A DNA stretch of 63,256 nt, counting the filler, from Sphacelaria rigidula (Eukaryota), in the NCBI GenBank assembly GCA_964200075.2. It is 10 parts of 10 records of this genome, joined end to end, with 100 filler letters (N's around TTAATTAATTAA, not from the genome) between each part and the next. Parts side by side here need not be neighbours in the genome. Positions count along the whole stretch, not along the records: positions 12,673 to 18,908 come from CAXNAA020021320.1; 9 more parts are not named here. The stretch is one strand, 5' to 3'. The notes beneath the pieces were generated by a model. The model searched no databases, had not been told where the DNA came from, and was given only the letters and a program-made list of their open reading frames with translations. Made by a program: the position numbers and the translations under genes. Shown here piece by piece: positions 12,162 through 63,256 of this stretch. Position 1 is the first letter of the stretch, and the number at the start of each line of letters is the position of its first letter.

Positions 12162-12270
12162 AGCCTGATCCGGCAAAAACCCGGCGTGCTCCGTCCCGGC
12201 TTCGTAGGGATGAGAGGTTAATGGTCATATGACTATGGCATGCATGATCATGAGTATACCCTCCCCCCCT
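12162..12270 (+). mobile_element. Family A (ATGAGTAC-ended) non-LTR element, 5'-truncated
   Basis: ...GACTATGGCATGCATGATCATGAGTATA followed by a C-run. Confidence 0.9.
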
Positions 12271-12930
12271 CACTGTTCCCTTGGCGATCATTCTCATTTT
12301 GTTCATCTTGGGTACGTCTATGTTGTGGACAATGACCACGTCGGGGATCGGTGTATGTGTAACCATCAATAAGTCAATTAATTTATCGATCAAATTTGGA
12401 ATTATTCTGATTTTCTTCTATATTTGGACTGCAAGGAGCCCAAGCAAGAGGGCCAAAGTGTGAATGAAAGACTTGGACAAGCAAAATTGGTATTTGTCTC
12501 CCCCCCCCCCCCCCCCCCTCCTATCACCTGGCCTCGGGGGCCCCCGCCGCGCCCCCCCCCCCCTCTTCGTGGNNNNNNNNNNNNNNNNNNNNNNNNNNNN
12601 NNNNNNNNNNNNNNNNTTAATTAATTAANNNNNNNNNNNNNNNNNNNNNNNNNNNNNNNNNNNNNNNNNNNNTCCATGACTAGTTGTACTGTATCATCCG
12701 AATCAGGTACACTATTGTGTTCATACTTCACCCGTAGGAGCTGGATCGCATAGAAATTGATCTGTCCGACGTGTGGAAATATTGAAGAAGCGAACGACAG
12801 TCCACCTCGTCACTACAGAACAAAGGATCTCCGTATGAAGAAAAGGATCAACAAGACCGACCCCAGAAAACCTCCACGCTGAGCACCGTCACGTAAACTG
12901 TGCAGAAAAAGCTCCCCCATCAGACAGTGA

Positions 12931-13257
12931 TTTCTTCTTTGTCACACTTCTAACCCCTCAACCCTTTCGCGGGACAAGTCCATGGTTTCAAGGAACCAGC
13001 CCATCCCTGCCCCGGTGCATACCTTACATCTTGGCATCGGATGCTGTACAGCACTTCCGAACCGTGGCGACTGTCGTCTAACAAGCCACGTTAGGCTCTC
13101 TTCATTAATCATACCCTCGCGTGTTCAACCATGGGAGCCAAACAGTTCTCTGAGAAAAAAAAAAAGCCGAACTCTATGCACCTGGCGGGAATCGAACCCT
13201 CGTTTTTCCCAAACTAATGCTGTCAGTTGTGTGACCAAACCACCGGGACGCGGTGGC
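12931..13257 (-). mobile_element. SINE family 2 variant (same head and tail, divergent middle)
   Basis: B box GGGTTCGATTCCC and GACTTGTCCCGCGAAAGGG...AAGTGTGACAAAG tail. Confidence 0.7.
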
Positions 13258-13404
13258 GAAGACGCAGGAAGCGAACACAGGAACCTCATGGTGAGAAAAA
13301 AAAACAAATCAGAATACTTCATGAGCACACGAAAAAAAAAAACACAACCCACAGCGCTTTGACGTGATAACAGGCACAGTACAAACCAAAACGCAGCCGC
13401 TCAC

Positions 13405-13578
13405 CGCTCTTGTCCACTCCCCCACTTGTTTGCACAGCGCTATTGCCGTGTTGTACGTTTGAACATCACGGGGCACATCTCGGCCCCACATCTCCCTCAG
13501 CAGGCACATACCCTCTTCTAGCTCTCCCGCACGAGCGCATGCCATGATGCCGGCATTAAATACCGCCGTTGTAACCAC
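13405..13578 (-). CDS. Pentatricopeptide-repeat (PPR) protein, exon 5 of 5 visible
   Basis: VVTTAVFNAGIMACARAGELEEGMCLLREM..DVQTYNTAIALCKQVGEWTRA carries PPR motifs; CAG acceptor, GTGAGC donor, 174 nt, phase 0-0. Confidence 0.92.
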
Positions 13579-13766
13579 CTGCTCAGGGAAGGGTTTCTTG
13601 TTATGAGCGTGTTCACGTAATATTTCCGAGACGTATAGCCTTAAACAAAGGAACACGCTCACAAACATTTATTTTTGCTGGTCCGCAAGGGGTGAGTACA
13701 TGCGTGTATTCACATCTTAGACACGGCCATACCTTCCCTCTTTTTTATCGAAAGCTCGAAGAGAGC

Positions 13767-14293
13767 GGGGGCTGTACTCATGATCATGCATGCCATAGTC
13801 ATCAGACCATTGACCTCGCATCCCTACAAAGCCGGGAGACGGAGCGCGCTGGGTTTTCGCCGGACCAGGCTCGCACTATATCACCAAGCGCGAAGCGCCG
13901 TGGTGTGTTCGACGACTCGCATTAAGGGTGAGCTGCATTCTGCTGAGATTCTTCGTCCCGACGCCTACTGATTATCTTGCATTTGGACGACAGCCTCCAA
14001 TGAGTTGCTTCATCTTCTGGTATCGCCACTTCCAGAGACAGCCACAGCTTATACACTGACTGCCTCATGGGTATCTCACTATTTAAACACAACGGAGTAC
14101 GATCATACGATCATCCCCATTGTGCGGAGTTGAGGTTTTCCCACGCCGCACAACATGATCTAGCTCAACTACCATCTAATACCGCAAAGAAACGCGAGCG
14201 CGCAAAAAAATCGGTAAGTTCTTTACTTGGCTTACGCAGTGAGTGGCGTATTTTATAGCGTCATCGCCAACCGACGCCAACCCAATCGGGGGT
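13767..14293 (-). mobile_element. Family A non-LTR element, longest copy (~520 bp), G-runs on both flanks
   Basis: Collinear with 46142-46625, 38098-38418 and 31690-31960; ends CATGATCATGAGTACA; no intact ORF. Confidence 0.92.
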
Positions 14294-15089
14294 CGGGGGG
14301 GGGGGGGGGGGGGGGGGGGCACCATTCCAACTTCTAGTAGCGCATGAAGATAATTGTTCCAAAATGTTGAAACCATGAAGCATACATGCCCATGACCCAT
14401 AATTTTGGTCATTTTTCAAGCTAGATGGTATATATCGCATGAATGGCACAACGCCGACAGTCATCTAAAGTCAGGGTGACGGAGGGCCGCTCTAAATCCA
14501 AGTGACCAAGCTGCCAGAGGCTGTCAGACCTCCAAACTTATGTTGACTCACGCGGCACAGAAGTCCATTACTGGAGTCGACGTAAGGACGTACGTACACT
14601 GGTATTCATGAATTGGTAACTTGACTACCAGTCAGAAAATCAAACTGAGGTGATTACAAACAAACGGACGGATCGCCTGAGTTGCGGACTTGGGTGGAGA
14701 CTATCTTACACCACCCCACAGAAACGGGGTAGGAAACAAAAGTCGAGGCACCTCACGAGCATCAATACCTTCGACGCCCTCCGACCCCCCGGGTGCTCGG
14801 AGAGGAGATGCGTTGATTTCATCCCTGGGAAAGAAAGGGTAGAAGGTGAATTTTTTCCCCCTTTCAGCAGCGTTGTTCACGGGTTGAGCCCCCTCGGAGC
14901 GACGGGCTCTACTTGCAGCACGCGGTGGCTATTTTCGATGCATGCACTTTGACCCTGAGTGAAAAAGACGAGGGTCCTCCACTTTCATACTCACGGTTTT
15001 TGGTCATTACCAGTACTACATCTGTCTTCAGAGTACCTCAAACCCCGTAGTATCCGGATCTCCCGTTCATGGATGATCCGGATCTTCGG

Positions 15090-15452
15090 TTTGTTGCCAT
15101 CCCATTTATTCTGGACGTCGGTCTACACCTTCCGGTATATGTGGACGCACCCGCCGGGGTCACACAGGAAGAAGACCAAAACCGAATTATTACTTTTTTC
15201 TGTTTGTTTCAAATTCTCCACCTTCCTTCTGCGGCGCTTGCCTTTTTATTTTCATCACAAAAGGGGTGCAGAAGTCCCTTTTTCCCATCGACCGCTACGT
15301 CGAATTTTGTGTACCCACGAGTTAGTCGCTCTCCGCTGTTGGGCAGTGTGTGAAAAAAAATCCCAGATCGTACGACTTCACCGAAATTCGAACCCACGAC
15401 CCAATTGTCAGAAGGTTTCGAGGTTCCCAACTGAGCCACCGGGGCAACCCGC
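15090..15452 (-). mobile_element. tRNA-headed SINE family 1, full length, ~20 bp from a PPR donor site
   Basis: A box GGTGGCTCAGTTGG and B box GGGTTCGAATTTC on the minus strand; family tail present. Confidence 0.9.
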
Positions 15453-15472
15453 CAGGTTTATGGATCACTCAC

Positions 15473-15572
15473 CGTATGATCCGGATCTTCCATGTCTAAC
15501 AAATCGTTGAGCAAATTCATGGCATCCTCGAAACGACCCACACGTCCGTAGGCTGCGATTGTAGCTGTGGCA
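15473..15572 (-). CDS. PPR protein exon 4 (ATATIAAYGRVGRFEDAMNLLNDLLDMEDPDHT)
   Basis: AACAG acceptor, GTGAGT donor, PPR motif, phase 2-0 compatible with neighbours. Confidence 0.9.
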
Positions 15573-16110
15573 CTGTTGGAAAGTGACGAAACATTACAAA
15601 TATCGGGTGGGAGAGGGGGGGGAAGTGAGACCTACGAAAAAGCATATTCATCTTTCAAAAGAGATGTGAAGAGGAGATGAGTCCCCGATAGACGCCTGTG
15701 GTAACGTATCCCTTCTCGACGAGAGTACCTGCATCGCGCCCGTTTTCATGGGCCTCATTCCTGCGACGACGAAATATTTGAACATGTAACTTTTTATGCC
15801 AAGTAGCGGTTAGGATGTTCAGCTTTTTTTTTACTCACATATCGATTGCGTGTGTTGGTTCCGCCAGGTCAACGCCTGGCCGAAAAAAAAAAAAAATGTC
15901 ACGTTTGGGAACTCCTACTTCCTCACTTACCGGAATTTCCACGATCTTGTGCGCTATACTTTGACATTCTCCGACCATTTGGACCGTTTCTTACGGTTCG
16001 TATTTTCCACTTTGGGGATCTTTGGCACGGCTTTTGCCCCCAAACAGGGAATATCGTCATGGAACATCTTGGATGCTTTGCATCGGCCCACCGATATTAG
16101 TCTAGCTCAC

Positions 16111-16164
16111 CGCTTACATTCGCCTGGCTTCGAGGTTTCGAGGATGGCTAGACGAAAAAGCGAG
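16111..16164 (-). CDS. PPR protein exon 3 (SLFRLAILETSKPGECKR)
   Basis: TTTTTTTCCAG acceptor, GTGAGC donor, 54 nt, phase 2-2. Confidence 0.65.
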
Positions 16165-16684
16165 CTGGAAAAAAAATGCGGTGTATACAGGTGTTTCCAC
16201 CGTGAATCACTCTCTGTATCGTAGACGACATCATTACGCCACATACATGGAAATGTGAGGCGGGGGTGGGAGGACATGAAATACGGTACCGTCAGCATGT
16301 GGTGAACTTCCGAACGGCTTGCCACAGCGTGGTTCCAAGTGCAGTCAAGGACAAAAACAACGAGACATATCAAAGGTCAATTTGACGGAGTATTCCCCTC
16401 CCCCCCTGCACTCGATTGTTGTAGCATCTTCTCACCAAATAAATGAAAAAAAAAAAAACAGGAGTAATCCCAAAAGCATCAATCCAACAACACAGTCCCC
16501 CGTATCCTTCCGTTCGTCATCCGAATGATCACTACCGAAAACAAAACAAAAAACCAAAGAGAGAAAAAAACTTCGCCGCAACAAAAGCAGCACATCGTGC
16601 TACAGCAAATAACATAGAAGCCACATCGCCCCAGGGACACGGTCCTCTACCCCAACTGCCCTCGCAAACACACAGTCTCCACAC

Positions 16685-16828
16685 CTGTAGGCGTTGTGCA
16701 CGATGCCAGTCAAAGCCATCTCGTCGGCGAGAACGGCCGCCCCAGCCCAGCTCTTGCATCGCGTCAACGACGTCAGTACGCCGGCCACTGCACGCGGATC
16801 GCACACCAATCCCTTCTGGCGCATGCTC
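16685..16828 (-). CDS. PPR protein exon 2 (SMRQKGLVCDPRAVAGVLTSLTRCKSWAGAAVLADEMALTGIVHNAY)
   Basis: Degenerate PPR motif; CCAG acceptor, AG|GTGTGG donor, 144 nt, phase 2-2. Confidence 0.75.
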
Positions 16829-16951
16829 CTGGATAGGTTGCATGAGCACACACAGAACTTACACACAGGAAAAAATGAGAGGCTACGGGGCGGATCCGAC
16901 AAGAAGTGCCTTACATATACATATAAATATATATGCACATGTGTGTGTGCT

Positions 16952-17263
16952 GTGGCGCGGCCCTGGGGTCTAATGATCAAACTGTTACCTTTAGGGTGGA
17001 GAGAACGTGGGTTTGATTCTCGATGCGTTTGGGATTTTTTCTTCGGAATATTGGATTTACACCGTCGAAATAGTGAGTGATTGAGCAAACGCAAATCTAC
17101 TGACTTGAAATTTGTTTCACGAGAGTTGACGGGGTGCGGGAATGTGGACCCAATCCGCGAGACCATAACGAAATACGTGTACTGGGGGAGAGGATACGGG
17201 CTGATAACTTGGGACCACGGATTCCTTCCGAGGAAGTGGGGGGCTTCGAAGTGTGAGGTGAAA
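16952..17263 (+). mobile_element. tRNA-headed SINE family 2
   Basis: Collinear with 18031-18360; degenerate B box GGGTTTGATTCTC. Confidence 0.8.
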
Positions 17264-18030
17264 CTAGAAAATGTAGAATTCTATATTGTGAAGGCGACTG
17301 GACTTCTCAGGGATCAACTTACATGCGCCAAACAAAATCGAATCAATTGTAATTTTCAGAAAAAATCACGTCGACCGTACGGGTGTGTGGCAGCGGAGGC
17401 CGAAAAATCTGTGATGGGAATGTCGAGACGACAACTTGTTCTGTCGCACCCTTTTCATTTTCAATTCTACGAATGCGCGCAGAGAACGCAGGACAGGACA
17501 ATAAAAGGGTGGAAGCACCAAGTAATGCACGGCAACCATCTCCACCGCGGCCGTAATTACGGTCGAGAGGGTGGACTTCGAGCATTATGCTCTTCGACAG
17601 GCCAACTCCTTGCGCAGCACTGTCTTCCATCACTTGTCACCATGTATACACACTAGGTAAAATGATCGCGGACCCGTCACCACAATAGCAAGGCTGCATT
17701 ATATAGGTTATACAGTACCCATAAGTGGGGGAGTTTGGGTTGGCATACTAAACCATACCGAAATCAGTATGTGAACATTCCGGTACGGTTCGGCGGGGTA
17801 TCGAGCCCTCTTCCGAGCACTTTGGTATGGTCCGGAGTGGTAATTACCGAAAACAAGTTATATATGATTCAGCATATACCCTATTTATACCTTCAGCCGG
17901 TACATCACTGCAGAACACAACCTTGCAAAATTCCAAGGTGGAATATCCTTGTTTCCACCGAACCCTGAGGCTGGGCCTTATCCAAAGCCCGAGTCAAACA
18001 CGGACCAAGAACCCTCGGGTATGAACGGTA

Positions 18031-18360
18031 CCGCCGCGCTCCGGTGGTGAAATGGTCCGACTGCCACCGTAAGGGTGGAGAGAGCGTGGGTTCGATTCCC
18101 GATGCGTCGGGTTTTTTCCTCGAGGTAGTTGATTCCCACCATCAAAAACGTGAGTACGTGACCAAAACAAGAAGCAGTTGGTGAAGCTTGTTTGACGAGA
18201 GTTGACGCGGTACGGCGAGTGCTGGTCATGATCCAATCCGCGACACCAAAATTTAAGGCGTGAAACGGGGAGAGATGGGGTAATCCCTTGATACCAGTAG
18301 ACCACGGACTCATCCCGAAGAAGGAGAGGGGTTTAAACTGCGACAAATAAAAAAAATAAT
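18031..18360 (+). mobile_element. tRNA-headed SINE family 2, full length
   Basis: A box GGTGGTGAAATGG, B box GGGTTCGATTCCC (18088-18100), ends ...ACTGCGACAAATAAAAAAAATAAT. Confidence 0.88.
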
Positions 18361-18778
18361 CATAAAAAAGAGGGTAGCCTGGACAGCACTGACGAAGACA
18401 ATAGGACTGTCAGCCCTTTGAAGATCCGAGGGTGATGATCCGTAATTGAAACCAAGTATGCTCGAACCATGGGATGTTTTCCGGGTGACGGCTTAGCGTG
18501 AGGTTTGCGATATTCGCTAATATCGGTGTATTTCCTGATTCACTTGTTGATAGAATGTGTAACTCAAGTTGAGGTGAGGGCAGGGCACGTTTGCTTTTTG
18601 TGTGCAAAAGATCGGTGCTTGTTGACTGCGAGTCAGAAAGGTCGGTGTGATGTGGTGATGAAAAAATAAATACGGGTGACGCGAACGGGTGAGATTTGGA
18701 GTTGCCTGGAGATCGCGCTGTCTGCACTGTTGTAGGGAAGGTGTAGGAAAACATCGTTGCACCCGACCAGCTCTCCAC

Positions 18779-18835
18779 CTATGCTGGACCACTACTGCAG
18801 CTGATGCAGCTGCTTTTGCTGAGGCCTTCGGAGTG
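18779..18835 (-). CDS. Possible upstream PPR exon (TPKASAKAAASAAVVVQH)
   Basis: CTAAC branch point, GAAG acceptor, AG|GTGGAG donor, phase 2-2. Confidence 0.4.
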   Translation of the reverse strand, partial: HSEGLSKSSCISCSSGPA

Positions 18836-19008
18836 CTTCAATAGTTGTTAGCAGTCGGCATGTCAAATATTTCTCCAAAGCCGAAAAATGAGGAGGGAGC
18901 GGGGAGGGNNNNNNNNNNNNNNNNNNNNNNNNNNNNNNNNNNNNNNNNNNNNTTAATTAATTAANNNNNNNNNNNNNNNNNNNNNNNNNNNNNNNNNNNN
19001 NNNNNNNN

Positions 19009-19072
19009 CTTTGTAGGGATGCGAGGTCAATGACCCTATGACTATGGCATGCATGATCATGAGTACACCCTC
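19009..19072 (+). mobile_element. Family A 3' end at contig start
   Basis: GGGATGCGAGGTCAATG...CATGATCATGAGTACACCCTC. Confidence 0.9.
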
Positions 19073-20091: not shown

Positions 20092-21642
20092 TTACCAACC
20101 TAGCCTTTGCCTTCATTATAGTAAATCTAAGTCACTTGTCCAACTAAGAACCCATCTCGCTGAAACCAAGTTCACTCCTTCCAGTACAGGGCCAATCGAA
20201 AATGTTCCAGCCTTTTCATGACCTCCCAGTTCGGCCTGCATCGCGTCTCATTATGCCTCTCGAAACTCTGATTTTGTAATGTCATTCATACTGGTGGGTG
20301 CTGCTTCTACTTCGCTTACATGCAGGCCAACCAGTGAACGCAAACCAAATTGAGGCTACCCTACTCTGTTTTCCTCAGCAATAAAACAAAAAGACTCCTT
20401 TTCGACCAACTCATTCTGGATCGAGGCGATTGAGCCTTGTCCGAAAACTTGTCGTGCTGCTGCGGTGATCATCTCCACGGTTGAGCATTTGTCGTCGGCC
20501 ATCCCCACCAGCGCCATCTCCGCTTCCTCTCTGCTCTCCTCCGCTCCGCTAGCTACCAGCTTTTCGCCATGTGTATCTACCGACCCCATAGCTCGCGCGT
20601 TTGGCTCCTCGTACGCCTCGCCCTTCGTGTTGGCAACTCGTCGGCCCACGTGGGACGGCGTCGCTCGGTCCTCGGGAGTTAAGGAGTGTCGCCCCCCCCC
20701 ATCCGCCGTCTTGCGAGGGACCCGTGGAAGAGGGTGACAGGGCGGGCGACGAGGGAATGTTCGATGTCGATGCGAGCGCCAGTGTTGGTGTCAGCGTCGG
20801 CGTAGGTGTCGGCATCCGCGCTGGTGTCAGCGTCGGCGCTGATGTTGGCGTTGATGTAGATGATGATGATGGTTCTAGCTCCCCCTCACCTCCTCTGTTG
20901 ACAAAATCTGGAACGGGGATCTCTCTGATATCACCCCGCCTTCTGGCACTTTGCCCCCCTTCACTACCGACGGGGATCTGCGGTGCTGCTCCGCCCCCCC
21001 ACCAACGGTACTCGGCGGGGAGGACGGTGCGCTCGAGGAACCGCTGGACGAAGTGTCCACTGTCGAGTTTTCCATCCTTTTCTCGCCCACTCCCTTGCCT
21101 GCATCGACTTTGGAATCCTTCGGCTCGCCCGGCGTCTGGATCGCTTGCTGTAGTGTGCGGGAAGGGGTGGCGGAGGTACTTTCTCACGTTACATGCCTTG
21201 TTACAGTCATGAATCCTCGTGAAGTCAAAACTCGCATCGCGTCAGGTGGGTAGCGTGGGGCTGGGCTTAAATACCAGCATTTTCCCGCCTTCGGCTGTAA
21301 TTTGTTTGTCCGCTTCCTCCCACAAAGCCCAGGCTTCAAAACCGGAATGAGATCACCGTCCGGTGGTGATCCGTACCACATATCATGCGGTGATTTGCTT
21401 TTTGGGTTAGCCGAGGTAGCGGTGCAGTTCAGGGGGTGACACGCCTAGTCTGCCTGTTCAGCCCACAGGTTGTCACCATTTGGGATACGCTCATCTGGGT
21501 ACAGCTCAGATGCTTGGATCTTGGCCGCAAGGCCAGCTCTTTCGATGATACCCAACGCTGGTTCTGCAACGCCGTTGAACTGGGTGTGTCGGGAGTTGTC
21601 GCGTCTTGCTTGATCTTTTCCCTTTCGCACACTTCACCAAAT

Positions 21643-21894
21643 GACTGCTGCTGAGATAGCCCCCCCCCCCCGAACCGGCCAAGAATGTGCACGGATGCGA
21701 TGATCATAAATGACGTTAGAGCTGGTTTCGTGTTCCACGACGCGACTTATTTGGGCGTTATAGCTGATTTAGGACTGCTACAAGCCTTTTATGTGGGCGG
21801 AATTGCTGCAAACGAGCCCAATAGTGGGATCGGAGCCGGTCTGTCGGACGGTCTCCCGTGAACTTGTTGTGGGGGGGCTATCTCGGCATTAGTC
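21643..21894. mobile_element. 252-bp MITE with ~23-bp TIRs and 4-bp AAAT TSD (Sola1-like)
   Basis: GACTGCTGCTGAGATAGCCCCCC / GGGGGGCTATCTCGGCATTAGTC; removing it plus one AAAT restores the integrase frame SEGAFGEV. Confidence 0.85.
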
Positions 21895-24272
21895 AAATGC
21901 ACCCTCCGAGAATTCACCCCCGTCATCGCTACGGACTATCTCGATTTTCTTGGAGAAGCCCATACAAAGTATGTAGTGAAGTTTCGCTCTGCCTCATCCT
22001 TCGTCCGGAGGAAATGCAGCTTCGTGAACCGTGAGTGATCATCTCGGGCTATCATCGTGTACCACTTTCCACCGTGAGACTTGACTGGTTCCGGGCCGGG
22101 AAGATCTACAAATGCCCTAGACGCTGATTCAGCTGCTCTCGTGTGCCTCGATCTTGAATCCGTCGTCGTAGTCCCTTCGCCTCTGAGCAACCGCGGCAGG
22201 GCTGCAGCTTTCTAGCCAGCTGCTTTCTCAGCTGCTTCGCAGTCTTTCGCAGTAAGTCCTCGTGGACGTGGGCGTGGGCACAGTGGAAATAGTTCATGTC
22301 AGCGATCTGGGGGCTAGGCGGAGCCCCCGGGGCAATAACAGCATATGCCGATGCACACTTGTCGCCACCACTTTGGTCAAGGCGCCGGGGTACATTTTTC
22401 GTTGAAGTTTTTGTCAGGGTATTTTCAGTGTATTTATTGCCTGAGATGAGATCCACCCTGAAACCTTCAAGAAAATCAGTGTAGGTGTGTCCCATGTTTT
22501 GGATCCTCGCGAGTGATAAGAGGTGATGGCGGACATTAGGTACATGGTCAACATCCATTAATTTGACCATCACATCCTGTCCGTCAGATCTGAAGGGAAA
22601 ATAAAAATTTCCTCTGCCTACGATCGGGTGAGTACTACCACCCGCGCACCGTAGTACCCTACCCTGACACTCTCTGGACTCCGTCATCCCACGGGAGTCG
22701 GGGGAGAAGTGCTAGGTAGCCCCCGTGTCAAATACCCACGGTTCGCCCTCACCCTGCTCTTTATCACACCCCTGCCCAACACACAATGCCTACTCGCCTG
22801 TTTCGCCGTTGATGCTGGTGTCGAAAGAAGAGAAAGTGTCCCCGTCTACGTCCGAGCAAACGGAGGAGTCGTCGCTGTCGTCGGCCGCACCCATCGCCAT
22901 CACCACATCATCTTTTTTCGCTGTCGATCTCGGACAGTCCCAGAACTTGTGCCCCTATTGACCGCATCTCCCGCAGTATCTCTTCGGGTAGTACCTGGCG
23001 CGGTGCGTCCTGTCCTCATCGCAAACGTGGCAGCGGAGCAGCTTCCCAGCCGCCGGTTTGCCGTCCGACGATTCCGACCCAGAGCTACTAAAACTCTGGC
23101 TCCCACCATTTTTCTGATCAGAGCCCCGGGGGTTTCCCGGTTTTCCTTTGTGGTGTGCACCGCTCGGGTTTCCGGTCCCACCCCTTGCGAGGAGAGCCTG
23201 GTCGCCAGGGGATAACGTTTTTCCCCGGGCAAGTTCCTGGTTCAAAGAGGTCGACTTGGAGCGCTGTCGGACCGAGGTTAGCATAACCTCCCGTGTCAGC
23301 GGCCCCTCTCGATCCTCCAGCAACTGCTTCTGCACGTGATACTGGTATGGCAAGGCGTTGAGGTATTTCAAGAGGATATGATTTCCGCTGAGGGGTCGAT
23401 GTTTCTCGTATGAGTTCAGGTATCGTGTATTTTCCTCCATCTCGAGCAACTCCTGTTCTGGATCATCACGAACACCAATCTTGAGTTCATCGAATTTTGC
23501 CAACAAAGCGATCCTTATCCCATCTGTTTTGGGGCGAAAGATATCCGCGAGGTTTCTCCAAACCACACCAAGTGAGGGGACTCTGAGCGAGATACCTTGC
23601 TTTCTCTTTCCTTCGAAATTGGCAGCAAGCATCCGTTTCGCCCTCACGTGGGCTGCTACTGTGTCCTTCCTGTATCTACTTTCTAGGTGTCCCAGTGCCA
23701 ATTTAGGGTCACCGGCATCTACGGCGTGCGAACTGTCGCCGGCCATGGTAAACACCCAGCCAATTTCTTCGCCCCTCGCGAAGTTGACCAGCTCATATCT
23801 GTATTGAGCATACTCTGCGTTTTTCTCTGAAAATGTCGGGACGTTTTGTCGAAAACGGGAACTCCTGATACATTTCCACCTGCATCGTTTATCAAGACTG
23901 ACTCAAGTTCGGGGACAAAGCCCCTAGCTCTGTCGTCTCCGGCCTCCTTATTCCCCGCGTTGCAAGTTCCTCCCTCTGGGACGGCTTGACTCCCGATGTG
24001 CTGGCGGTCTCTTCGAGCTCCGGCACTACGTCGCTCTACTGTACTGTTCGTTCTGGATGCCCCCTGTGGACTATGGCAACCAACACTATCGAGGACACCA
24101 TTGGTTTCTGCGCCTCTGGCCTCTCGTACTACCCTCATATCGTTCACGTCACTCAGTAATGCAGTTTGGTTTAACTACAACTCACGCAATAGCTCAGCCA
24201 TGGAACTTAGCTGGCTAGTCACCATCCCCAGTTGCTCAATAACACCCTGCTCACCAAGTACTGTAGCAAGCG

Positions 24273-25068: not shown

Positions 25069-26526
25069 CTCGCGAATATTTCTTATACTCGGTTTTTAAG
25101 TGTTGAGGATTGAGTGGGGGGAGAGAAAGAACGTGGCACTGGCACCGAACCGACGACCCTCCATGGACGGCCAACCACAGCGAGAAATGACACTTTCTAC
25201 GATAGCCCCCCCCAAAAAAGTGCATGGTTTCGGGAGGCAAAATCNNNNNNNNNNNNNNNNNNNNNNNNNNNNNNNNNNNNNNNNNNNNTTAATTAATTAA
25301 NNNNNNNNNNNNNNNNNNNNNNNNNNNNNNNNNNNNNNNNNNNNATTCATCACGAGTCAACTTACCATACTAAAAGCAAGTAATTTCCTGACGAATCATT
25401 ATTTGTCCTAACCGTGAATTATTCTAGGGAAAAGGCCATCAAATATTATATTTTGTCCGCCATGCAGGGGAGGGAGGGGGTGACGGTCCAGGATTTCTTT
25501 TTTGAACATACTGTACTACTGTATTCCTGTACAGAAGATTTTTTTTCGGTCCGCTAGGGGGCGGGTAGAGGTGGGGGTGGGGGGGTTAACGAAAAGACAT
25601 TCTTACTAAACGCCTAAACCTGATAGATTACGAATCAAGTGAAGGTGAGGGTATATCTATCGTCTCCGCGTCCATGCTCCAGTCCAGGGAAGGCCCACAC
25701 CAAAAATTGCCACCATCCGCTCAATTGATGGTTCGGGGTTTCAAATATAGATTTTGTAGTGTGGAGGCTATCTCCGCACTGTGTAGGAATTACTAGACAA
25801 CATGGCGTGTAATCAACGAGAAAAAAATGGCCCAGCTTGTTTAGCAGATGGGCACCTTCCCCTTGATTAGGCAATTAATAAGATATGCGGATCACGGCCC
25901 GACTCGCCTATCTAAGTCGTTGATTGAGATAATATCGCTTTGAGAGCTTAAACCCGTTTTGAGGCTGGCCCAGCTCGTAGAGGATTACGAATACCCAAAA
26001 TCCTCTACGGGGAATTTCAAAACGGACGGAACCGAGGATGACGTTTGGAAAAGCCTATTAATAAACAAGGTAGCCAAATGCGGCCGCGTGTGGTGCGGCC
26101 TAACCTACTCAGTACCCCCAGCACCCGCGGAGCACTGTCTTCCCAAAATATTAGGCATATTCCGGAGTATCTCCAGTATCGGCAGTCAAAAATACTCGTA
26201 CTCGTTCTCCCCTGTACAACAGACAAAGGGTGAGGCAGTACGGACTTTTGCTCCTATTGTAGAGTATTACAGTATACTAGTACGGACCTCTGGATGAGTT
26301 TCCTTTTGATGGTTGGAGTTTGCGATGACATCATCATCATTTAACCGCAGGTGGGAAATAAAATAAAAAAACAAGAAATTGGAAACGTTTCTACAACGCA
26401 ACGTCAACTGGCGCCCTGCGACCCTGGCAGTCTACAGTCTAGAGTGCAGCAGACGGAGGCACTTCATTGAGATACAGTGACGGCAACGACAAGCGTGCCA
26501 GACGATCTCCATTTCCGGCTGTTGCC

Positions 26527-30387: not shown

Positions 30388-30413
30388 TTCGAACCTCCCG
30401 CTGAAAAGATGGG

Positions 30414-30510
30414 TGTACTCATGATCTTGCATGCCGTAGCCATAATATGACCATTGGCCTCGCATCCCTACAAAGCCGGGAAGGAGCACACCGGGTTTTC
30501 CCCAGACCAT
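30414..30510 (-). mobile_element. Family A, 5'-truncated, with ~14-bp TSD
   Basis: Flanked by GCTGAAAAGATGGG (30400-30413) and GCTGAAAACAGGGG (30511-30524). Confidence 0.88.
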
Positions 30511-30668
30511 GCTGAAAACAGGGGGGGGGGGGACGGCCTGCAACCTCATGGAGGCTAGGGGGGCTTGATAGTTTTTATTGTTGCATATCTTTCCCAACAT
30601 GTTTCTTTTCCGGGCCTATCAGTCATTATATCGCCGTATCTTACGTCCCGTTTCTTCTTTCATCCTTA

Positions 30669-31131: not shown

Positions 31132-31689
31132 TTACTCCGCAAGATTCACACCCGACATGGATTTCGCAGCTGAGTCGTCGAGGTCAGTTTACCACTTGGT
31201 AGGGGTGGAATTTTTCTCCGAAATTTATGATTTTGAGTAACACTAGAATAAAAAATAGCAAACGAAGGGTGATACGTGACCACAAAATACAAAGTACACT
31301 TTGGCTTGCAATTCAACTGCATGCTTGCTTGTGGGTCCGGACGTGAATCATTTTGCGCTCTCATCCCCGCCTGCTGCCTTGGCTTGTTTGCATCTTCCTC
31401 CCCTCACGGAGAGTCTGCTGCTGCATATTACAGATTGATGGTTTTAGAATCGCTCATCGCTTTGTATGGGATTTGAATGTCATCCGAGGGTACCCAAAAA
31501 AAACAATCCGAGACCCTATACCCCTTTTTTTTAATCCTGGAGTTTTTCCGGGGGGGGGAAAGGGGGGGGGGGGGGGTGTANNNNNNNNNNNNNNNNNNNN
31601 NNNNNNNNNNNNNNNNNNNNNNNNTTAATTAATTAANNNNNNNNNNNNNNNNNNNNNNNNNNNNNNNNNNNNNNNNNNNNGCCCTACTC

Positions 31690-31960
31690 AGACGTCAGTT
31701 GACCTCGCATCCACCCCTACGAAGCCAGGATGGAGCACGTCGGCTTTTCGCCGGACCAGGCTCGCAGTCAATCACCAAGCGCGGAGCGCCGTCATGTGTT
31801 CGGCGAGTCGCATGAAGGGTAACCTGCATCCCGCTAAGACTGTTCAGCCCTGTAGCGTACTGATTATTTCGCATATGGATGACAACCTCAAATGAAATGC
31901 TTCATTTTCTGGCATTGCCACCTCGAGAGACAGCCACGGCTTATACACTGTCTCATGGGT
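31690..31960 (-). mobile_element. Family A fragment at contig start
   Basis: Collinear with 13767-14293; G-run on the 5' side. Confidence 0.88.
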
Positions 31961-34416: not shown

Positions 34417-34596
34417 TTGCCCACACTGATGATCCCGCATGCTGTAGTCATATAATCATTGATCTCGCATCCCTACAAAGCCGGGATGGAGCACGCTGGG
34501 TGTTCGCCGGACCAGGCTCGCAATCAATCACCAAGCGCGAAGCGCCGTGGTGTGGTCGGCGAGTTGCATGAGAGGTGAGCTACATCCTACTAAGAT
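34417..34596 (-). mobile_element. Family A, 5'-truncated, abutting a G-rich tract
   Basis: Collinear with the family 3' region. Confidence 0.85.
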
Positions 34597-36494: not shown

Positions 36495-36720
36495 TAATGA
36501 CCTACGGAAGAAACGTTATGAGCGCCGGAATGTTGGAGGTGTCTCTATTTGGAGTAGGAACGGTGCTCCGTCCCGAAAGGGATGCGTGGTCAATGGTCAC
36601 ACGACTAAGGCAAGCAAAATATGAGTACACCCCCCCCCCTGCCCCTCCCCCACCGCCAGAGAGATGCGAGGTTAGTGGGCTCATGACTACGGGATGCGAG
36701 ATCATGAGTAGACCCCCCCT
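36495..36720 (+). mobile_element. Family B (RTEX-like LINE) 3' end followed by a short family A tail
   Basis: LRKKRYERRNVGGVSIWSRNGAPSRKGCVVNG matches the C-terminus of the LINE at 61111-63020; both pieces end ATGAGTA plus a C-run. Confidence 0.88.
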
Positions 36721-36764
36721 AATGTAGCATCACTCAACGATGAAAATAAAAGACGACGACGTAC

Positions 36765-38016: not shown

Positions 38017-38418
38017 TCCGTCCCGGCTTTGTAGGGATGCGAGGTCAATGGTCTTATGACTATGACATGCATGATCATGAGTACACCCTCCGCCCCCTGG
38101 TGAGACACCCATGAGGCAGTGTGTGTAAGCCGTGAATGTCTCTGGAAGTGGCGATACCAGACAATAAAACAACTCATTGAAGGCTGTCATCTAAATGCGA
38201 GATAATCAGTAGGTAGGCTTCGAGCCGATCAATCTCCGCAGGACGCAGCTCACCCTTCATGCGACCCGCCGAACATACCACAGCGCTTCGCGCTTGGTGA
38301 TTGAGTGCGAGCCTGGTCCGGCGAAAACCCGGCGTGCTCCGTCCCGGCTTTGCAGGGATGCGAGGTCGATGGTCTCATGACTTTGGCGTGCATGATCATG
38401 AGTAACCTCCCCCCCCCC
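38017..38418 (+). mobile_element. Two head-to-tail family A copies (38017-38085, 38098-38405)
   Basis: The second copy starts in the C-run after the first (CCCTCCGCCCCC) and ends at CCTCCCCCCCCCC. Confidence 0.9.
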
Positions 38419-39329: not shown

Positions 39330-42300
39330 GGGACAGAAGGGCTGGCTACGCTGGGGTAGTTTCGCTCCAGTCCAAAGCGACAGATTGAGACGTCATCATG
39401 GCTGCCGGAGACGCGTTGACAAGGCAAAATCGAGCTCGCTGCCACGGAAAACCCCGTCCTCTGTGGGAGCGGAGGGGACAAGGGAAGGGAAGGGCTGGGC
39501 ATGGGGTTGGGTCGGCGGTCGAATGACAATCGCCGACAATGCTGCGTGGACACAGGTGTTCACCAGCGAGCGCCTCATGTTGACGACTTTCGGCCTTGCG
39601 GGGAAAACGAAGACTGACGTTTATGGTTGCCTGTGCCCAACACCCGCATGAATCAAGCCTAGAGAGGGATCTGTCCTGGACCGAGTTGGACAGCACTGTA
39701 AGCCGAACTAATCAAAAACGACCACTTGTTTGTTGAGATGGGCGCTACCGGTAGGACGGGGGCAAGAGCAGACGAGGATGATGGTGCAGTAGCACGGGCA
39801 TGCGGAAGGGACTCCCGGACCAGCGGCAACGATGACCCTGCGTTGCCATGACTCCCAGGTGACCACAGGCCTGCCCCGGTAAGTGTGCTTTCTTCTCCCC
39901 CGAGAGAGGCACATCGCGTACGATCAACGAATATTGCAGGCCGTCTAGCGGACAGAAAAAGTATTGACTACACCGTCATACGGCACGAGCCCACCTCCGC
40001 TTTTCAACATGTCGCTGTACACCCCCAACTGCCCAACTCGCCTGACGCAGGCCACAACATCGCGGGCGCTACGGCGCGGCCCCTTGGTAGATCGCTTGCA
40101 ACCGACAACGACCAGCCCCCAGTGGAGCAAAGGCACACACAGGGGAGCAGTAGCATTTTATATCGGCAAACGTAAGAAAGTCATACACGTTATCGTCAGC
40201 GAGCTCACGCAGGGCAAACCCCCGTGGAGTGTCAGTAAATTGACTGGAAACTTTGTCGACATACTGGTGAGATTCGCGTAGGAGATGGTGCCATGGCCCA
40301 CCCGACGCCCTGTGTACAAGGGTGGCTGGAGGATGCTGGGATCCGAGTCGAGTTTTAGGAGACCTAGAATGAGCGGGAGAGGACTGCGTCGGCGTCGCGA
40401 GGAGGGCTGAGAGATAGCCAGCCCCGCATGGCGCACCCAAGCGTGAGCCGGGCGCAAGGAGATGGTCGAAGCTGGGTTGGACAGGTACCTGGACGCGAAT
40501 GCGATGAAACCGGAGGAGTACATTAGAACTGGTAACATGAACGGCTGGTGTGGGTATCTGAAATTGGATAAAAAATCAGGGAAAAAAACAGCCAAAGAGC
40601 GAACAGTACACACATCAAGGATGAGAAGGGGGAAACTGCTTCGACGTGGGACTTCAGTCCATGATGAATGAAAACGGCCTTTCCCTACTTCGCCGAATAC
40701 AACATCGGCAACTCTTAGTCCAACCGTTATCGAGAGTATATCCGCTGCTGGAAGGCGTATGGGTTCGACGTCCGCCAACTCTTGCTGGAACAGAAGAGGC
40801 GCCGCCAGCCATGGCTAACGGCGAAGCGATGGGACGGGCGGACTACCTGCTGAACTCCTCAAGCTAAGATTTCGTCGGAGAGCCGTCGGGAACCCCGAAC
40901 CACTTTCAGAGCATAACCGGTGCTGTTTAGACGTCTGGTGAAGAGCTGAAAAAGTGGAACGACGCCACTATTACAGTTCTACAGTACACAAGACAAGGAT
41001 AGGACGGTGAAGTGACTATTCGAGCACTCCCCTAGGGGCTTTTACTTCGAGGAATCTGCGAATATTCATCCCTGGGGGTGTACTCACGGCATGCATGATC
41101 ATGAGTACGCCCCTAGGGGTGCAAGTTAGCAGATTTCTCGAAGATGGAGCCAGCAGACTCGGTATTTTGAGTGAAGAGGCTACCATTCCCCGCGACGAAC
41201 AGGGCAGTACCGTGAACCAACGATCGGCAACCGATATTTGTGTTCGCAGGGCGCCGACTGAAGAAGTTGAGACAGCGAAACGATGTCCCAGTAAGGACGT
41301 GCTTCGTCGAGTACATGCTTTGTCACCCTTTCTAGAGGGCGCAGGAGTGCATAGACCGCACGCACTCGTGGGAAGTACTTGCCCATTCTGAACACCCCGC
41401 GGCGGATGATCAAAGTCCTTCCCATGTTAGACGATGGCATGCTAGCTTGGGTACAGCTGGTTGATGGCGAACCATCAGGATGATTTCAGGTCGACCAGGG
41501 AATCAAGCAGGGAGGTGCTTCGTCCTCGCCACCGCTCAACATGTTCGGCATGGCACTCGCTGGCGTGATTTTACAACGTTTCTCAGCAGACCCGACCGTG
41601 GTTGCGGGCTTATTAATAGCATATCTCGATGATGCGCCGAAGACTGGGGATGGTCACACCAAACAAGAGACTTCGGCGAAGGGGATACGACGCCGGCGGG
41701 GGATACTATACGTGGATGACGCAGGCGTCGTCTCGACGTCGTCGGGCAAGCTTTCTCCGATGACGGCTGTGATAGTGGGAGTCCGTCAGTAGTTTGTACT
41801 GAAGATGTCTCAGAGCAAGATAGAGGCCATGCACCCGTGGTCAGTACTTAGCTCCCCAGGGACCGCGCTGCACACCAAGGCGTCAAGCAAACCGTATATG
41901 AAGACGGCCGACTTTTTCCCATCTTGGGTGGTGCTATCAGGCTAGAAGCGAATACTTCCATCAGAATCACGCACCGCACCAACGCTGCGTGGGCATATAT
42001 TCGTGAGTATAGCTCCCAACTCTACGGTCCACTAAATGCTCTGTTGTCGCGCGCAATCGGATTCTCGAAGCGGGAGTGGGTTGTCAAAGCGGGAGAGGTG
42101 AAAGCTGTGCTGTGCGGGTGTGGTACGCCGGCGCTGCCCCAGAGGACTTCGAGCACCTGCGAACTGCCTGCCACACGTCTTCACTGTGAAGAGCTGGCCT
42201 CCGCGACAGTACCGCAGTAGACACGTTCCATGCAAGCATGTTCACCAAATGATCACATGCGAACGGATCGAGACGGTCATCCGCAAGCCTCAATGCTTGG

Positions 42301-46009: not shown

Positions 46010-46625
46010 GGGGGTGTGCTCACGATCTTTTGCATGCCGTAGTCATATGGCTATCGGATCTCGCATCCCAACAAAGTCGGGACGGAGCGTGCCGGGTCTT
46101 GGTCGGACCAGGCTCGCAATTACCTTTTCATGTTTTGTGAGCGGGGTGTACTCATGATCATGCATGCCATAGTCAGAGGACCATTGACCTCGCATGCCTA
46201 CAAAGCCGTGACGGAGCACGCCGGATCTCCGCCGCACCAGGCTCGCACTCAATCACCGAGCGTGAAGTGCCGTGGTGTGTTCGGCGAGTCGCATGAAGGG
46301 TGAGCTGCACCCTACTAAGATTATTCGGCCCGAAGCCTACTGATTATTTTGCATTTGGATGACCGCCTACAATTAGGTGCTTCATTTTCTGGTATGGCCA
46401 CTTCCAGACAACCACGGCTTATATGCTGCCTCGTGGGTGTCTCACCATTCAAACGCTACGTAGTACGATCATCCCCATTGCTCGGAGTTGAGGTTCTCCC
46501 ACGCCGCACAGCATGATCTAGCTCGACTACCATCATGGTTACCGCGAAGAAAAATGCAAGCACGCAAAAGACAATTCGGTAACCTGGTTGCCTGGCTTAC
46601 GCAGTGAGTTGCGTGTTTTATAGGG
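46010..46625 (-). mobile_element. Two tandem family A copies (46015-46120, 46147-46623)
   Basis: All three junctions carry a related TTGTG(T/A)G(C/A)GGGG sequence, consistent with repeated insertion at one target. Confidence 0.9.
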
Positions 46626-46790
46626 TTGTGTGAGGGGGGAGTGGGTTCACAACTCTTGTACCCTACCCTTATCCTGTAAGCTCAACGACAAGAACACATA
46701 AAAAAACTTTGGAATTCCAAGAGCGCTCCTCCCGCCCTCCGGCGTCCCTCCCTGCCCTGACTTCCCACACCTCCCCGGCCCGCAACTCAC

Positions 46791-48888: not shown

Positions 48889-48956
48889 GGGGGGGGGTTA
48901 CTCATTTGTTGCTTGCTCTAGTTATTCGATCACTGACTATACATCCCTTTCGAGAC
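48889..48956 (-). mobile_element. Family B 3' tail fragment against a G9 run
   Basis: TACTCATTTGTTGCTTGC...CATCCCTTTCGAGAC matches 61114-61192. Confidence 0.8.
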
Positions 48957-61045: not shown

Positions 61046-61098
61046 GGGGGGTGTACTCACGATGTTGCATGCCATAGCCGTGAGACCGTTGACTTTGC
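61046..61098 (-). mobile_element. Family A tail inserted directly downstream of the family B LINE 3' end
   Basis: GGGGGGTGTACTCACGATGTTGCATGCCATAG... followed by GGGGGCGGCGGGGCGTACTCAT. Confidence 0.85.
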
Positions 61099-61110
61099 AT
61101 TCCCACAAAG

Positions 61111-62087
61111 TCGGAACAGGGGGCGGCGGGGCGTACTCATTTGTTGCTTGCCGTGAGTCGTTTGACCATTCACCACGCACCCCTTTCGAGACGAAGCACC
61201 GTTTCTACCCCTAATAGAGACACCTCCAACATGTAGGTGCTCATTACGTTTCTTCCATACACTACATAACAACCTCTTACACATCGTTCCCCCGCCATGT
61301 TTCGCCGCCTGTGGCCACCACCTATATCCTAGTATAGTCATCGTTTTCTCCCTACTGTCTAATGCATCAAACGATTCCATGCCACTTTTGTTCACGTCCC
61401 GCATCCCGCCCTCTAGCACGTCCCGTTCCTCCTTGTATCGTTCACATTCTGCCACCATTATATACGAGTTCTGCTCTCTATTCCTTTGCCACAGGGGCAA
61501 CTCGGTGCATCTACTTCCTCCTCCTCTCGACTACTGGTATATCTCTTCTTGTTTCTGGCAGGTTCAGGTCCCCATCCCGAAATCGCAGTTTCATATTTTC
61601 CCCGCGTCCATTAGGCCATGCAGATATGCTTTCATCCCTAATCCCTCTCTCGACCCCCCGTATATCTTCAAGTGTTCTTCCTTGTCCACTTTGCGTCTGA
61701 GCGCTTCTTTCCCTTATTTCTATCACGTCTCTTACTTTTGTCTTGTACCCCGCACCTTCACCAATCAAAAACTTTTCGTCTTGGTTTCCTTCTATCTCCA
61801 TCCATACTTTATCGACTGCTCTGTCCCACCTCATTCCAGCCTGCTCTTTCGTAACTCTCTTCCATACAGCCTTCTCAACTATGACTGGCAATATCCCTCT
61901 CTGCATGTTCTTTACGCTATATTTCCATCGAAGTTTCCTCATGTCTCTGTTTTGAGTGGGTACATTCCCAACTCTCTCAATGCTGTATTACCCGTCGTTT
62001 TCGAGCATCCAAGCATTTTCTCAGCTGCTGCCATCTGTACTGTTTCCAACCTGTTCACCAGCTTCACGTTCCCCTCCCATACTTCCC

Positions 62088-62122
<35 letters not shown>

Positions 62123-63020
62123 ATATCACATTAGCTGATTGCAACAATCCAGCCCGTGGTCAGGAGCAGCAAAAATAGAACAGAATAATAAAAAGAAAAA
62201 AGAAAGATAGAAAAAGACAGAAGCCACGGCCTCAGAAAGTAAAGAAACTGAGCAGCGAAGACAACAAAAACAACACCACCACCACCAACAACAACAAACA
62301 ACAGCAACAACAATAAACAACAACAGCAGTAACAACAAAATAACGACAAACACAAACACAAACACGCATATTCCAGCCTTGGTACGATCACGTTCATCAG
62401 CATACATATCTTAATCCAAGTATCTAGGTGCGAGTCTTTGGGGATCACGTCCATCCTGCCTATCTGTGCCTTACCCTTTTCTATTACTTCATCCATGCGT
62501 GCATCCCAAGAACAGTGTTTTCAAATCTCGACGCCAAGGTATGTATACTGGTCTACGATCGGAAATTCCTCCCCTTCCCACTTCCATTTGAACTCTGTCC
62601 GATTTTTCCTATTTTCGTTGCAGACGAATACCGCACATTCGTTGACGTACGCTGTCACTCTCCATCTCCCAGTGTATTCTAGCGCCTCCTCTATTTGTTT
62701 TTGCAATCATTCTGCTGTTCCTGAGATCCCCACAACATCATCCGCGACCATCAATCCTGATACCATATCTTCACCCACCTTGACTCCTTGTTTTTCTGCT
62801 TTTATTGCAATTATCAAGTCATGAACACATACCTTGTATAAAGTGGGTGATAATGTACATCCTTGTGCAACTCCTTGAAGAATATAAAAGTATTGCGATA
62901 TTTGCCCGTCTAGCATCATAGCATGTTCGGCACATTCTGTCATCTTTTTCACCATTCTCCACATCTTTCCTCTAATTCCAGTTTCCCCATAACTTTTTCC
63001 ACAGCCCATTTCTCCATACT
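61111..63020 (-). mobile_element. Family B: 5'-truncated RTEX-like LINE (RT plus C-terminal Cys/His region), decayed
   Basis: ETGIRGKMWRMVK, QGVAQGCTLSPTLY, GLMVADDVVGIS, YTYLGVEI, VPRLEYA..VWEG, C-terminal C.CG..ES..H..EC remnant; ends GCAACAAATGAGTACG plus a C-run. Clade assigned by motif recall. Confidence 0.88.
62088..62365 (-). mobile_element. (TCAA)n-tailed retroposon nested in the LINE RT region
   Basis: (ATTG)8 tail, GACCACGG motif and T/GTT-rich body; splits the LEYA|GEVWEG motif. Confidence 0.8.
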
Positions 63021-63053
63021 GTGTTATGAGCCGTTTTTCCTCTTTTCTTTTTT

Positions 63054-63256
63054 GGGGGGGTCGTACTCATTTTTGCTTGCCTCAGTAGTGTGACAATTGA
63101 CCACGCATCCCTTTCGAGACGAAGCAATTTTACGGAGCATTTGTTTTTTTTGGGAGGGGGGTGTACTCATGACCATGCATGCCATAGTCACAAGACCATT
63201 GACCTCGCATCCCTACGAAGCCGGGACGGAGCACGCCGGGCTTTGGCCGGACCAGG
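63054..63256 (-). mobile_element. Stacked family B tail (63062-63126) and family A copy (63162-63256)
   Basis: Each is preceded on + by TTTTTTTGGG(A)GGGG, a TSD-like repeat. Confidence 0.88.

Follow-up and report, generated by a model that had tools for sequence, protein, structure and literature searches.

The closest described elements come from the brown alga Ectocarpus, for which a LINE with C-rich ends and its short partner were catalogued in 2025 (Genome Biol 2025, PMC12477816). According to the accessible parts of that paper, RTE-X is the most abundant LINE group in Ectocarpus, the best blastp matches of its members are RTEX-4_NV and RTEX-1_BF, and RTEX-1_Ec32 and RTEX-2_Ec32 are entered in Supplementary Material 3 with '(C)n 3'', '(C)n termini/TSD' and C-rich TSDs. 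The entries with C-rich TSDs cover RTEX-N1 and RTEX-N2 also; RTEX-N1_Ec32 is 607 bp long, is annotated with '60 bp 3' end 83% RTEX-1/RTEX-2', can occur in tandem and has a head which was left unassigned by the authors (PMC12477816, same parts). RTEX-1 is reported from Saccharina too, in the accessible part of PMC4421812. The pair and its C-rich ends are therefore already in print, as curation notes, and the suggestion in the preliminary description that this specificity was undescribed for RTE/RTEX-type elements is wrong; neither junction statistics nor a mechanism is given in the accessible parts of PMC12477816. A literature search on RTEX or RTE-X with TSD, poly-C or C-rich returned no further description. 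One mention of RTE-X and poly-C, in Blepharisma, concerns the TIR of a DNA transposon and was set aside as unrelated.

The stretch of DNA analysed here (63,256 nt, referred to as the window) was taken from the brown alga Sphacelaria rigidula (GCA_964200075.2) and consists of 10 pieces of 6235-6236 bp with N spacers between them. It holds a real pair of a LINE (family B) and a short parasitic element (family A) which, likened by the published table descriptions, are the counterparts in another brown alga of RTEX-1/2_Ec32 and RTEX-N1_Ec32, respectively. Copies were collected by using a profile of the last 75 nt over the whole window. At E<0.01, 18 copies with one common 3' end were obtained in 8 of the 10 pieces (zero in pieces 1 and 9) and were split by blastn into family A (14) and family B (4), by which the earlier count of about 14 and 4 copies over 8 contigs was reproduced exactly. 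The common 3'-end motif reported at the same time is genuine and far beyond chance, as the 20-mer GGGATGCGWGGTCAATGGTC gives 12 matches in the window at up to 3 mismatches versus 0 in 100 shuffles, and ATGAGTACACCC gives 13 matches at up to 1 mismatch versus 0.34 expected. When the longest copy of family A was used as the reference, 14 further blastn matches were found in the window, with an identity of 79-94% where the match covers at least 59 nt. These matches have one common 3' end position and 5' ends spread from reference position 1 to about 494; the window copies are 5'-truncated. The 3' flank is readable for 17 of the 18 ends, the remaining one being cut by a spacer, and the 5' junction is readable for 15 copies, comprising 9 stand-alone copies and 6 lying directly behind the tail of another copy. 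The features are as follows.

12162..12269 (+): family A, 3' fragment of about 95 nt with the tail TACCCTCCCCCCC; upstream without C-run.
13767..14293 (-): family A, non-coding; at 527 bp the longest copy. Its tail CAGCCCCC (13774-13767) follows GAGTA, whose last base is 13775.
14295..14319 (-): C25 run (G25 on the plus strand), adjoining the 5' end of the 527-bp copy; it is either a target run that was there before the insertion or a '(C)n terminus'. Contigs of the public runs break there, so that the length given cannot be relied on.
19009..19070 (+): family A 3' end with the tail CACCC; the copy is cut where its piece starts.
30399..30532 (-): family A copy of about 100 nt (30416-30513) with the cleanest TSD, CCCCTGTTTTCAGC versus CCCATCTTTTCAGC; C12 run just upstream.
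31681..31960 (-): family A copy corresponding to reference positions 222-484, with the 3' end cut by the piece boundary; 5' flank CCCCCTCCCCCCC.
34424..34596 (-): old family A copy; a long C-rich tract of CCCCT-like sequence comes after it, and no C-run lies upstream.
36503..36722 (+): array of a family B 3' fragment of 125 nt (36503-36627), a C10-rich linker, a family A fragment of 51 nt (36660-36710) and then C7.
38017..38418 (+): array of a family A 3' end (to 38083), the linker CACCCTCCGCCCCCTG and a family A copy of 305 nt (38100-38404) with a C10 tail.
41070..41121 (+): family A fragment of about 25 nt (41085-41107) between CCCTGGGGGTG and CCCTAGGGGTG; near-palindromic, with an inverted 3' terminus at 41076-41087.
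46017..46640 (-): array of family A copies of 478 nt (46149-46626) and about 100 nt (46017-46118), with CCCC.CTCACA.AA before, between and after them.
48889..48956 (-): family B 3' fragment of 58 nt (48899-48956), tail C9; no C-run in the 5' flank, which consists of a (GT)n tract.
61054..61121 (-): family A fragment of 68 nt, directly behind the C/G linker of the LINE and followed by CACCCCCC.
61134..63050 (-): family B, 5'-truncated LINE of about 1.9 kb with RT and C-terminal region (residues 791-1326 of a relative); stops, frameshifts and a low-complexity insert are present, and the endonuclease part is absent.
63064..63126 (-): family B 3' fragment of 63 nt, with a family A copy upstream of it and the LINE on its other side; flanks CCCTCCCAAAAAA and CCCCCCCAAAAAA.
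63164..63256 (-): family A 3' end with the tail CACCCCCCTCCC; the window end cuts the copy.

Family A had been described as a sequence without ORF or tRNA boxes, and this was borne out, since the reference copy gave zero Rfam matches at E up to 1 over 13700-14350 and contains no ORF above 116 aa within 13767-14293, and no tRNA was detected anywhere in the window. SINEs, strictly defined, carry an internal Pol III promoter in a head that stems from tRNA, 7SL or 5S; the Rfam and tRNA searches found no such head in family A. The repetition of the element was estimated from the contigs of four public runs on the piece 12673-18908. Over the element, the summed contig depth exceeds that of the flanks by a factor of 10^4-10^5 and declines from 3' to 5' (9.15, 4.66 and 1.81 million in run X2, versus about 65 in unique flanks); it shows high repetition together with 5' truncation and is not a copy number. 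By these contigs, no other sequence of the piece is repeated nearly as often as the element. Other highly repeated stretches of the same piece are located at 14961-15584, 16833-17248 and 17873-18496, where each of the four runs gives a summed depth 10^2-10^4 times the flank value. As for an empty site at 13767-14293, no bridging contig was present among the contigs of the four runs on this piece, and in runs X1-X3 the flank contigs end about 30 nt inside the element.

Family B is attached to a decayed RT ORF, in accordance with the earlier reading. The RT homology extends over 61150-63031 (-) and is split between 4 or more frames. Its best stretch, of 207 aa, shows 65% identity to a full EN+RT protein of 1328 aa (P0004, the nearest full-length relative), and the RT piece at 62707-63066 (-) shows 64% identity to an Ectocarpus protein; a 119-aa RT piece gives 24.5 bits with RVT_1, under the Pfam cutoff of 29.6. 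In P0004, Exo_endo_phos was assigned to residues 142-383 (55.6 bits) and RVT_1 to residues 710-959 (113 bits), so that the APE-type endonuclease is contained in the relative and the family B copy of the window spans only the RT and the C-terminal part. Since this 1.9-kb copy covers residues 791-1326 of P0004 and is interrupted by stops, frameshifts and an insert, family B is a decayed, 5'-truncated LINE. The region downstream of the RT is interrupted at 62130-62365 (-) by a T/G-rich low-complexity insert and then an (ATCA)n-like repeat. An assignment of family B to the RTE-X clade is supported by sequence similarity, namely by the 64-65% identity to Ectocarpus proteins in combination with the published blastp of the Ectocarpus elements to Repbase, from which the putative clade label was derived.

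The 3' end of the LINE was delimited with the aid of marine metagenome contigs. Among 69 metagenome loci with an exact match to the shared 20-mer, the element is present in only 3 (L011, L018 and L050), with an identity of 75-78% to family B over about 755 nt; none of the three contains the 5' junction. The other 66 loci (from soil, sludge and other sources) match only the region of about 20 nt and are unrelated, possibly representing a conserved bacterial gene segment or chance. In all three marine copies, the LINE ORF aligns through the last residue of P0004 and is followed by GTACG and a C-run of at least 7. In the coordinates of L011, the stop codon TGA lies inside ATGAGTA, 5 nt before the C-run, and the family B ends of the window share this layout. 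Because the TGA sits within the shared motif ATGAGTAC, the 3' UTR is limited to about 5 nt plus the Cs. A very short 3' UTR is a trait of the RTE group, and family B has it.

In their last 59 nt, families A and B show 83% (83.05%) identity, and the sequence before that is unrelated between them; to L011 and L018, family A is likewise 83.05% identical over 59 nt. Because the metagenome ORFs reach the last residue of P0004 and then run into Cs, the module shared by A and B corresponds to the end of the LINE coding region, the 5-nt UTR and the Cs. The proposal of an RTEX-like LINE accompanied by a short partner with the same 3' end is supported. A candidate hairpin in the module pairs in 90.3% of cells, with 4 changes on both sides, a value reached by 2-4 of 500 shuffles, and one A-U to U-A swap in it distinguishes families A and B. 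The folding energies of single sequences are no better than those of shuffled ones (z from +0.75 to -1.39), and the alignment of the copies gives weak support to a putative shared 3' hairpin.

The flanks of the copies were then compared with the background of the window. On the 3' side, a C-run of at least 4 is located within 14 nt after GAGTA at 15 of the 17 readable ends, versus 4.2% of 124,450 background 14-mers (binomial 2e-19), a C-run of at least 3 is present in 17 of 17 flanks, and CACCC directly follows GAGTA at 10 of the 17 ends. The family B ends are followed by a C-run of at least 4 in 4 of 4 cases in the window and in 3 of 3 metagenome copies. In the contigs of the four public runs, the consensus of 258 loose ends past the 3' end of the element is a G-run on the plus strand and is C-rich for about 18 nt. 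On the 5' side, a C-run of at least 6 occurs within 25 nt upstream of 5 of the 9 stand-alone copies (background 1.2%; P about 3e-8), and the remaining 5' flanks include one with CCC and three without any C-run. C enrichment above background is accordingly found on both sides, as the preliminary description had required. From the five enriched 5' flanks it follows that the target often contains a C-run. The upstream runs (C6 to C25) are preceded by sequence unlike the 3' end of the element, and therefore they look pre-existing and not like the tails of older copies. On the other hand, the CACCC at 10 of 17 ends and the absence of 5' Cs in 3 of 9 copies indicate that a part of the C-run travels with the element; the earlier view of a tail-less element with all Cs from the target is not supported. 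The postulated preference of the pair for C-runs is supported by the five upstream runs and by TSDs that begin with Cs; because only 5 of the 9 stand-alone copies have an upstream run, it is a preference and not a strict specificity. In strict targeting of the microsatellite type, nearly all copies lie inside the target repeat; here, 5 of 9 have an upstream run of at least 6 and 3 have none.

TSDs which start with Cs and run on into unique sequence were identified at 30513, 46626 and 63126. Of the two examples put forward initially, 30400/30511 was confirmed (CCCCTGTTTTCAGC versus CCCATCTTTTCAGC) and 41029/41110 proved ambiguous. The string CCCCTAGGGG occurs at 41030 and 41111, but a closer repeat (41070-41080 versus 41111-41121) directly flanks the fragment of about 25 nt, and the inverted GTGAGTACACCC is located at 41076-41087; the TSD at 41085 is ambiguous because the site comes close to a palindrome and contains the 3' terminus in inverted form too. 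Its 3' side has one C more than the 5' repeat. Within this near-palindrome (41070-41121), the inverted GTGAGTACACCC(CC) on the minus strand faces the direct ATGAGTACGCCCC at a distance of 13 nt, inside a CCCT.GGGG site, an arrangement that may have arisen if, at a C/G target complementary to itself, both nicked strands served as primers. When TSDs were scored by permutation over all 14 copies with both flanks readable, 5270 of 20000 shuffled pairings were as high (4707 of 20000 with C matches down-weighted), a non-significant result of a test that is weakened by the common C-richness and by shared flanks within arrays; the TSD support therefore comes from 3-4 copies only.

Among the 15 copies with a readable 5' junction, 6 lie tail-to-head behind another copy. 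They belong to four arrays (36503>36660; 38017>38100; 46626>46118; 63256>63126>LINE>61121), and many joints in the contigs of the four public runs likewise connect a 5'-truncated copy with the 3' end of its neighbour by way of a G-rich linker.

These data fit target-primed reverse transcription with a C-ended RNA that anneals to a G-run at the nick. It is considered probable that family B is an RTE-X LINE and family A its non-autonomous partner, that the C-tail of the RNA anneals at a nick in a G-run, and that each insertion produces a new C-run. The LINE ORF, encoding an APE-type endonuclease and RT in intact relatives, runs almost to the end of the element. The steps would be as follows. The partner would have copied the last 60-75 nt or so of the LINE as a module and, as we infer, would thereby borrow the RT of the LINE. 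The element RNA would end in ...GAGUAC(A)CCC(C)n. The endonuclease would nick the bottom strand within or beside a G-run, and the exposed ...GGG-3' end would pair with the terminal Cs and prime reverse transcription, as a C/G analogue of the L1 nick at TTTT/A that pairs with poly(A). Priming by C-annealing would explain why TSDs start with Cs, and also why a longer C-run is left upstream of the 5' copy of the TSD; the variable number of Cs could result from the annealing position or from slippage. As each insertion would leave a fresh C-run, and hence a new target, the frequency of tail-to-head arrays would be explained as well.

Other origins of the Cs were weighed against this scheme. If the Cs were borne by the element alone, as a (C)n tail of the RNA or as Cs added by the RT, at sites otherwise unselected, the upstream runs would have to be older tails that are no longer recognisable. 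The CACCC at 10 of 17 ends, the three stand-alone copies with a 3' C-run and none upstream, the loose ends C-rich for about 18 nt and the term '(C)n 3'' in the accessible Ectocarpus table (PMC12477816) are all in favour of such a tail; nevertheless it is unlikely to be the whole explanation, as C6 to C25 runs stand in 5 of 9 stand-alone 5' flanks against a background of 1.2% with no element 3' motif before them, and the TSDs at 30513, 46626 and 63126 extend from the Cs into unique sequence. The opposite origin, in which there is no tail at all and every C stems from an oligo(C) target duplicated as TSD, was that of the preliminary description. It agrees with TSDs that begin with Cs and with the C12 and C25 runs upstream of two copies which have only 3-5 Cs in the 3' flank. 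It is nonetheless judged very unlikely in view of the copies at 12162, 34596 and 48956, where 3' flanks of C7 to C9 or longer C-rich tracts are accompanied by no upstream C-run, of the extra C on the 3' side at 41085 and of the near-constant CACCC. With three stand-alone copies lacking 5' Cs and five having long 5' runs, the copies as a whole are not accounted for by a tail alone or by the target alone. That the homopolymer runs are artefacts of sequencing or assembly, such as the poly-G of two-colour chemistry, is hardly credible: several long runs do lie near piece ends and the run contigs break at the G25 run, but read on the strand of the element they consist of Cs in every case, whatever its orientation, and they lie internally between stretches of unique sequence; such runs are also present in three independent metagenome contigs and in the curated Ectocarpus library (PMC12477816).

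The arrays might also arise from one event, if the RT, at the 5' end of an RNA, switched to the C-tail of a second one; repeated insertion would then not be involved. The linkers 61134/61121 and 36627/36660, which are pure C/G without a repeated unique flank, and the many such joints in the run contigs are consistent with switching. In the arrays 46626/46118 and 63236/63126, by contrast, the same unique string is repeated after each member, as fits successive insertions that regenerate the TSD. Because of this recurrence, repeated insertion into the same regenerated C-run fits two arrays, and switching is regarded as a rather unlikely general cause. The reading preferred here remains target-primed reverse transcription of a C-ended RNA at a G-run nick; compared with it, the initial interpretation was correct in the kind of element and only partly right in the mechanism, as its tail-less and undescribed attributes were not sustained.

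The abundance of homopolymer runs was counted for the whole window. C/G runs of at least 7 number 41 versus 5.8 in shuffles, and A/T runs of at least 7 number 63 versus 5.6; at a length of at least 10 there are 10 C/G and 9 A/T runs. About 12 of the 41 C/G runs touch copies of family A or B. C7-C12 runs at 21640-21671 (+), 21871-21897 (-) and 25186-25213 (+) each lie behind a similar string of about 19 nt ending in GAGATAG or CGATAG, and these strings may mark another C-tailed family whose members are very short or strongly truncated; no longer homology and no family emerged when the preceding 300 nt were searched by blastn. At the piece end 31550-31580 (-), TACA is followed by C15, TTT and C9, which may be the 3' end of a boundary-cut element with only 4 nt visible.

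The pair matters mainly for annotation, in which RTE-X LINE and RTEX-N-type repeats are the labels under which these copies should be masked. Remnants of a copia-type LTR retrotransposon are also present at 22106-23902 (-), where one ORF has a weak match to Retrotran_gag_2 and another a match to Pol_BBD; the best protein match of the gag ORF (22955-23902) is from Sphacelaria rigidula, at 75% identity. For the TE proteins encoded in the window, the best named matches come from brown algae. With regard to the pair, it is put forward tentatively, and with somewhat more doubt than confidence, that the endonuclease/RT of brown-algal RTE-X elements is selective for G/C homopolymers, that these elements would then form the first LINE lineage with an oligo(C) tail and an oligo(G) primer as counterparts of the poly(A) and TTTT of L1, and that their insertions may have seeded the excess of C/G runs in the genomes. 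Element activity could account for brown-algal genomes being rich in C/G runs, an idea already hinted in print. A pair that is both C/G-tailed and C/G-targeting would help to separate endonuclease specificity from primer-template annealing in the A/T preference of L1-like elements.

Microsatellite-specific LINEs, reportedly treated by Kojima and Fujiwara in 2004, are said to occur almost exclusively inside their target repeat. Like them, the window pair inserts into simple sequence that matches its own 3' repeat; unlike them, it has an upstream C-run in 5 of 9 stand-alone copies and shows a preference in place of a strict specificity.

With mammalian L1/Alu, as partly known from the accessible parts of PMC3747384, the pair would share a homopolymer RNA tail, a non-coding partner that exploits the LINE, a TSD that starts with the tail base through annealing of the nicked strand, and tails that seed new targets. 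It differs from this relaxed type in that the base is C/G and not A/T, in that the LINE is a single-ORF RTE-X element and not L1, and in that the partner shares a specific 3' module of about 60 nt with the LINE, as stringent-type pairs do. In the stringent pair UnaL2/UnaSINE1 (PMC3747384, same parts), the partner likewise has the 3' end of the LINE, a possible conserved 3' hairpin is a further likeness, and terminal short repeats, thought to be sites of initiation or slippage, are common to both systems. In the window, unlike in UnaL2/UnaSINE1, a single C makes up the repeat unit, the shared module belongs to the end of a coding region and not to a 3' UTR, the hairpin is weakly supported, and no Pol III head was found in the partner.

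The Ectocarpus elements, as given in the accessible parts of PMC12477816, are the nearest to the pair; the partner differs in length, the longest copy of the window being 527 bp and RTEX-N1_Ec32 607 bp. RTEX-1/2_Ec32 is a LINE with a single EN-RT ORF, and the RT of the window is 64-65% identical to Ectocarpus proteins. Like RTEX-1/2_Ec32, family B has a (C)n 3' end (at the B ends of the window) and a C-rich TSD (at 63126). Like RTEX-N1_Ec32, an abundant non-coding partner of about 600 bp with a 3' end 83% as in the LINE, family A is 83% identical to its LINE over 59 nt, occurs in tandem (in the four arrays) and has a C-rich TSD.
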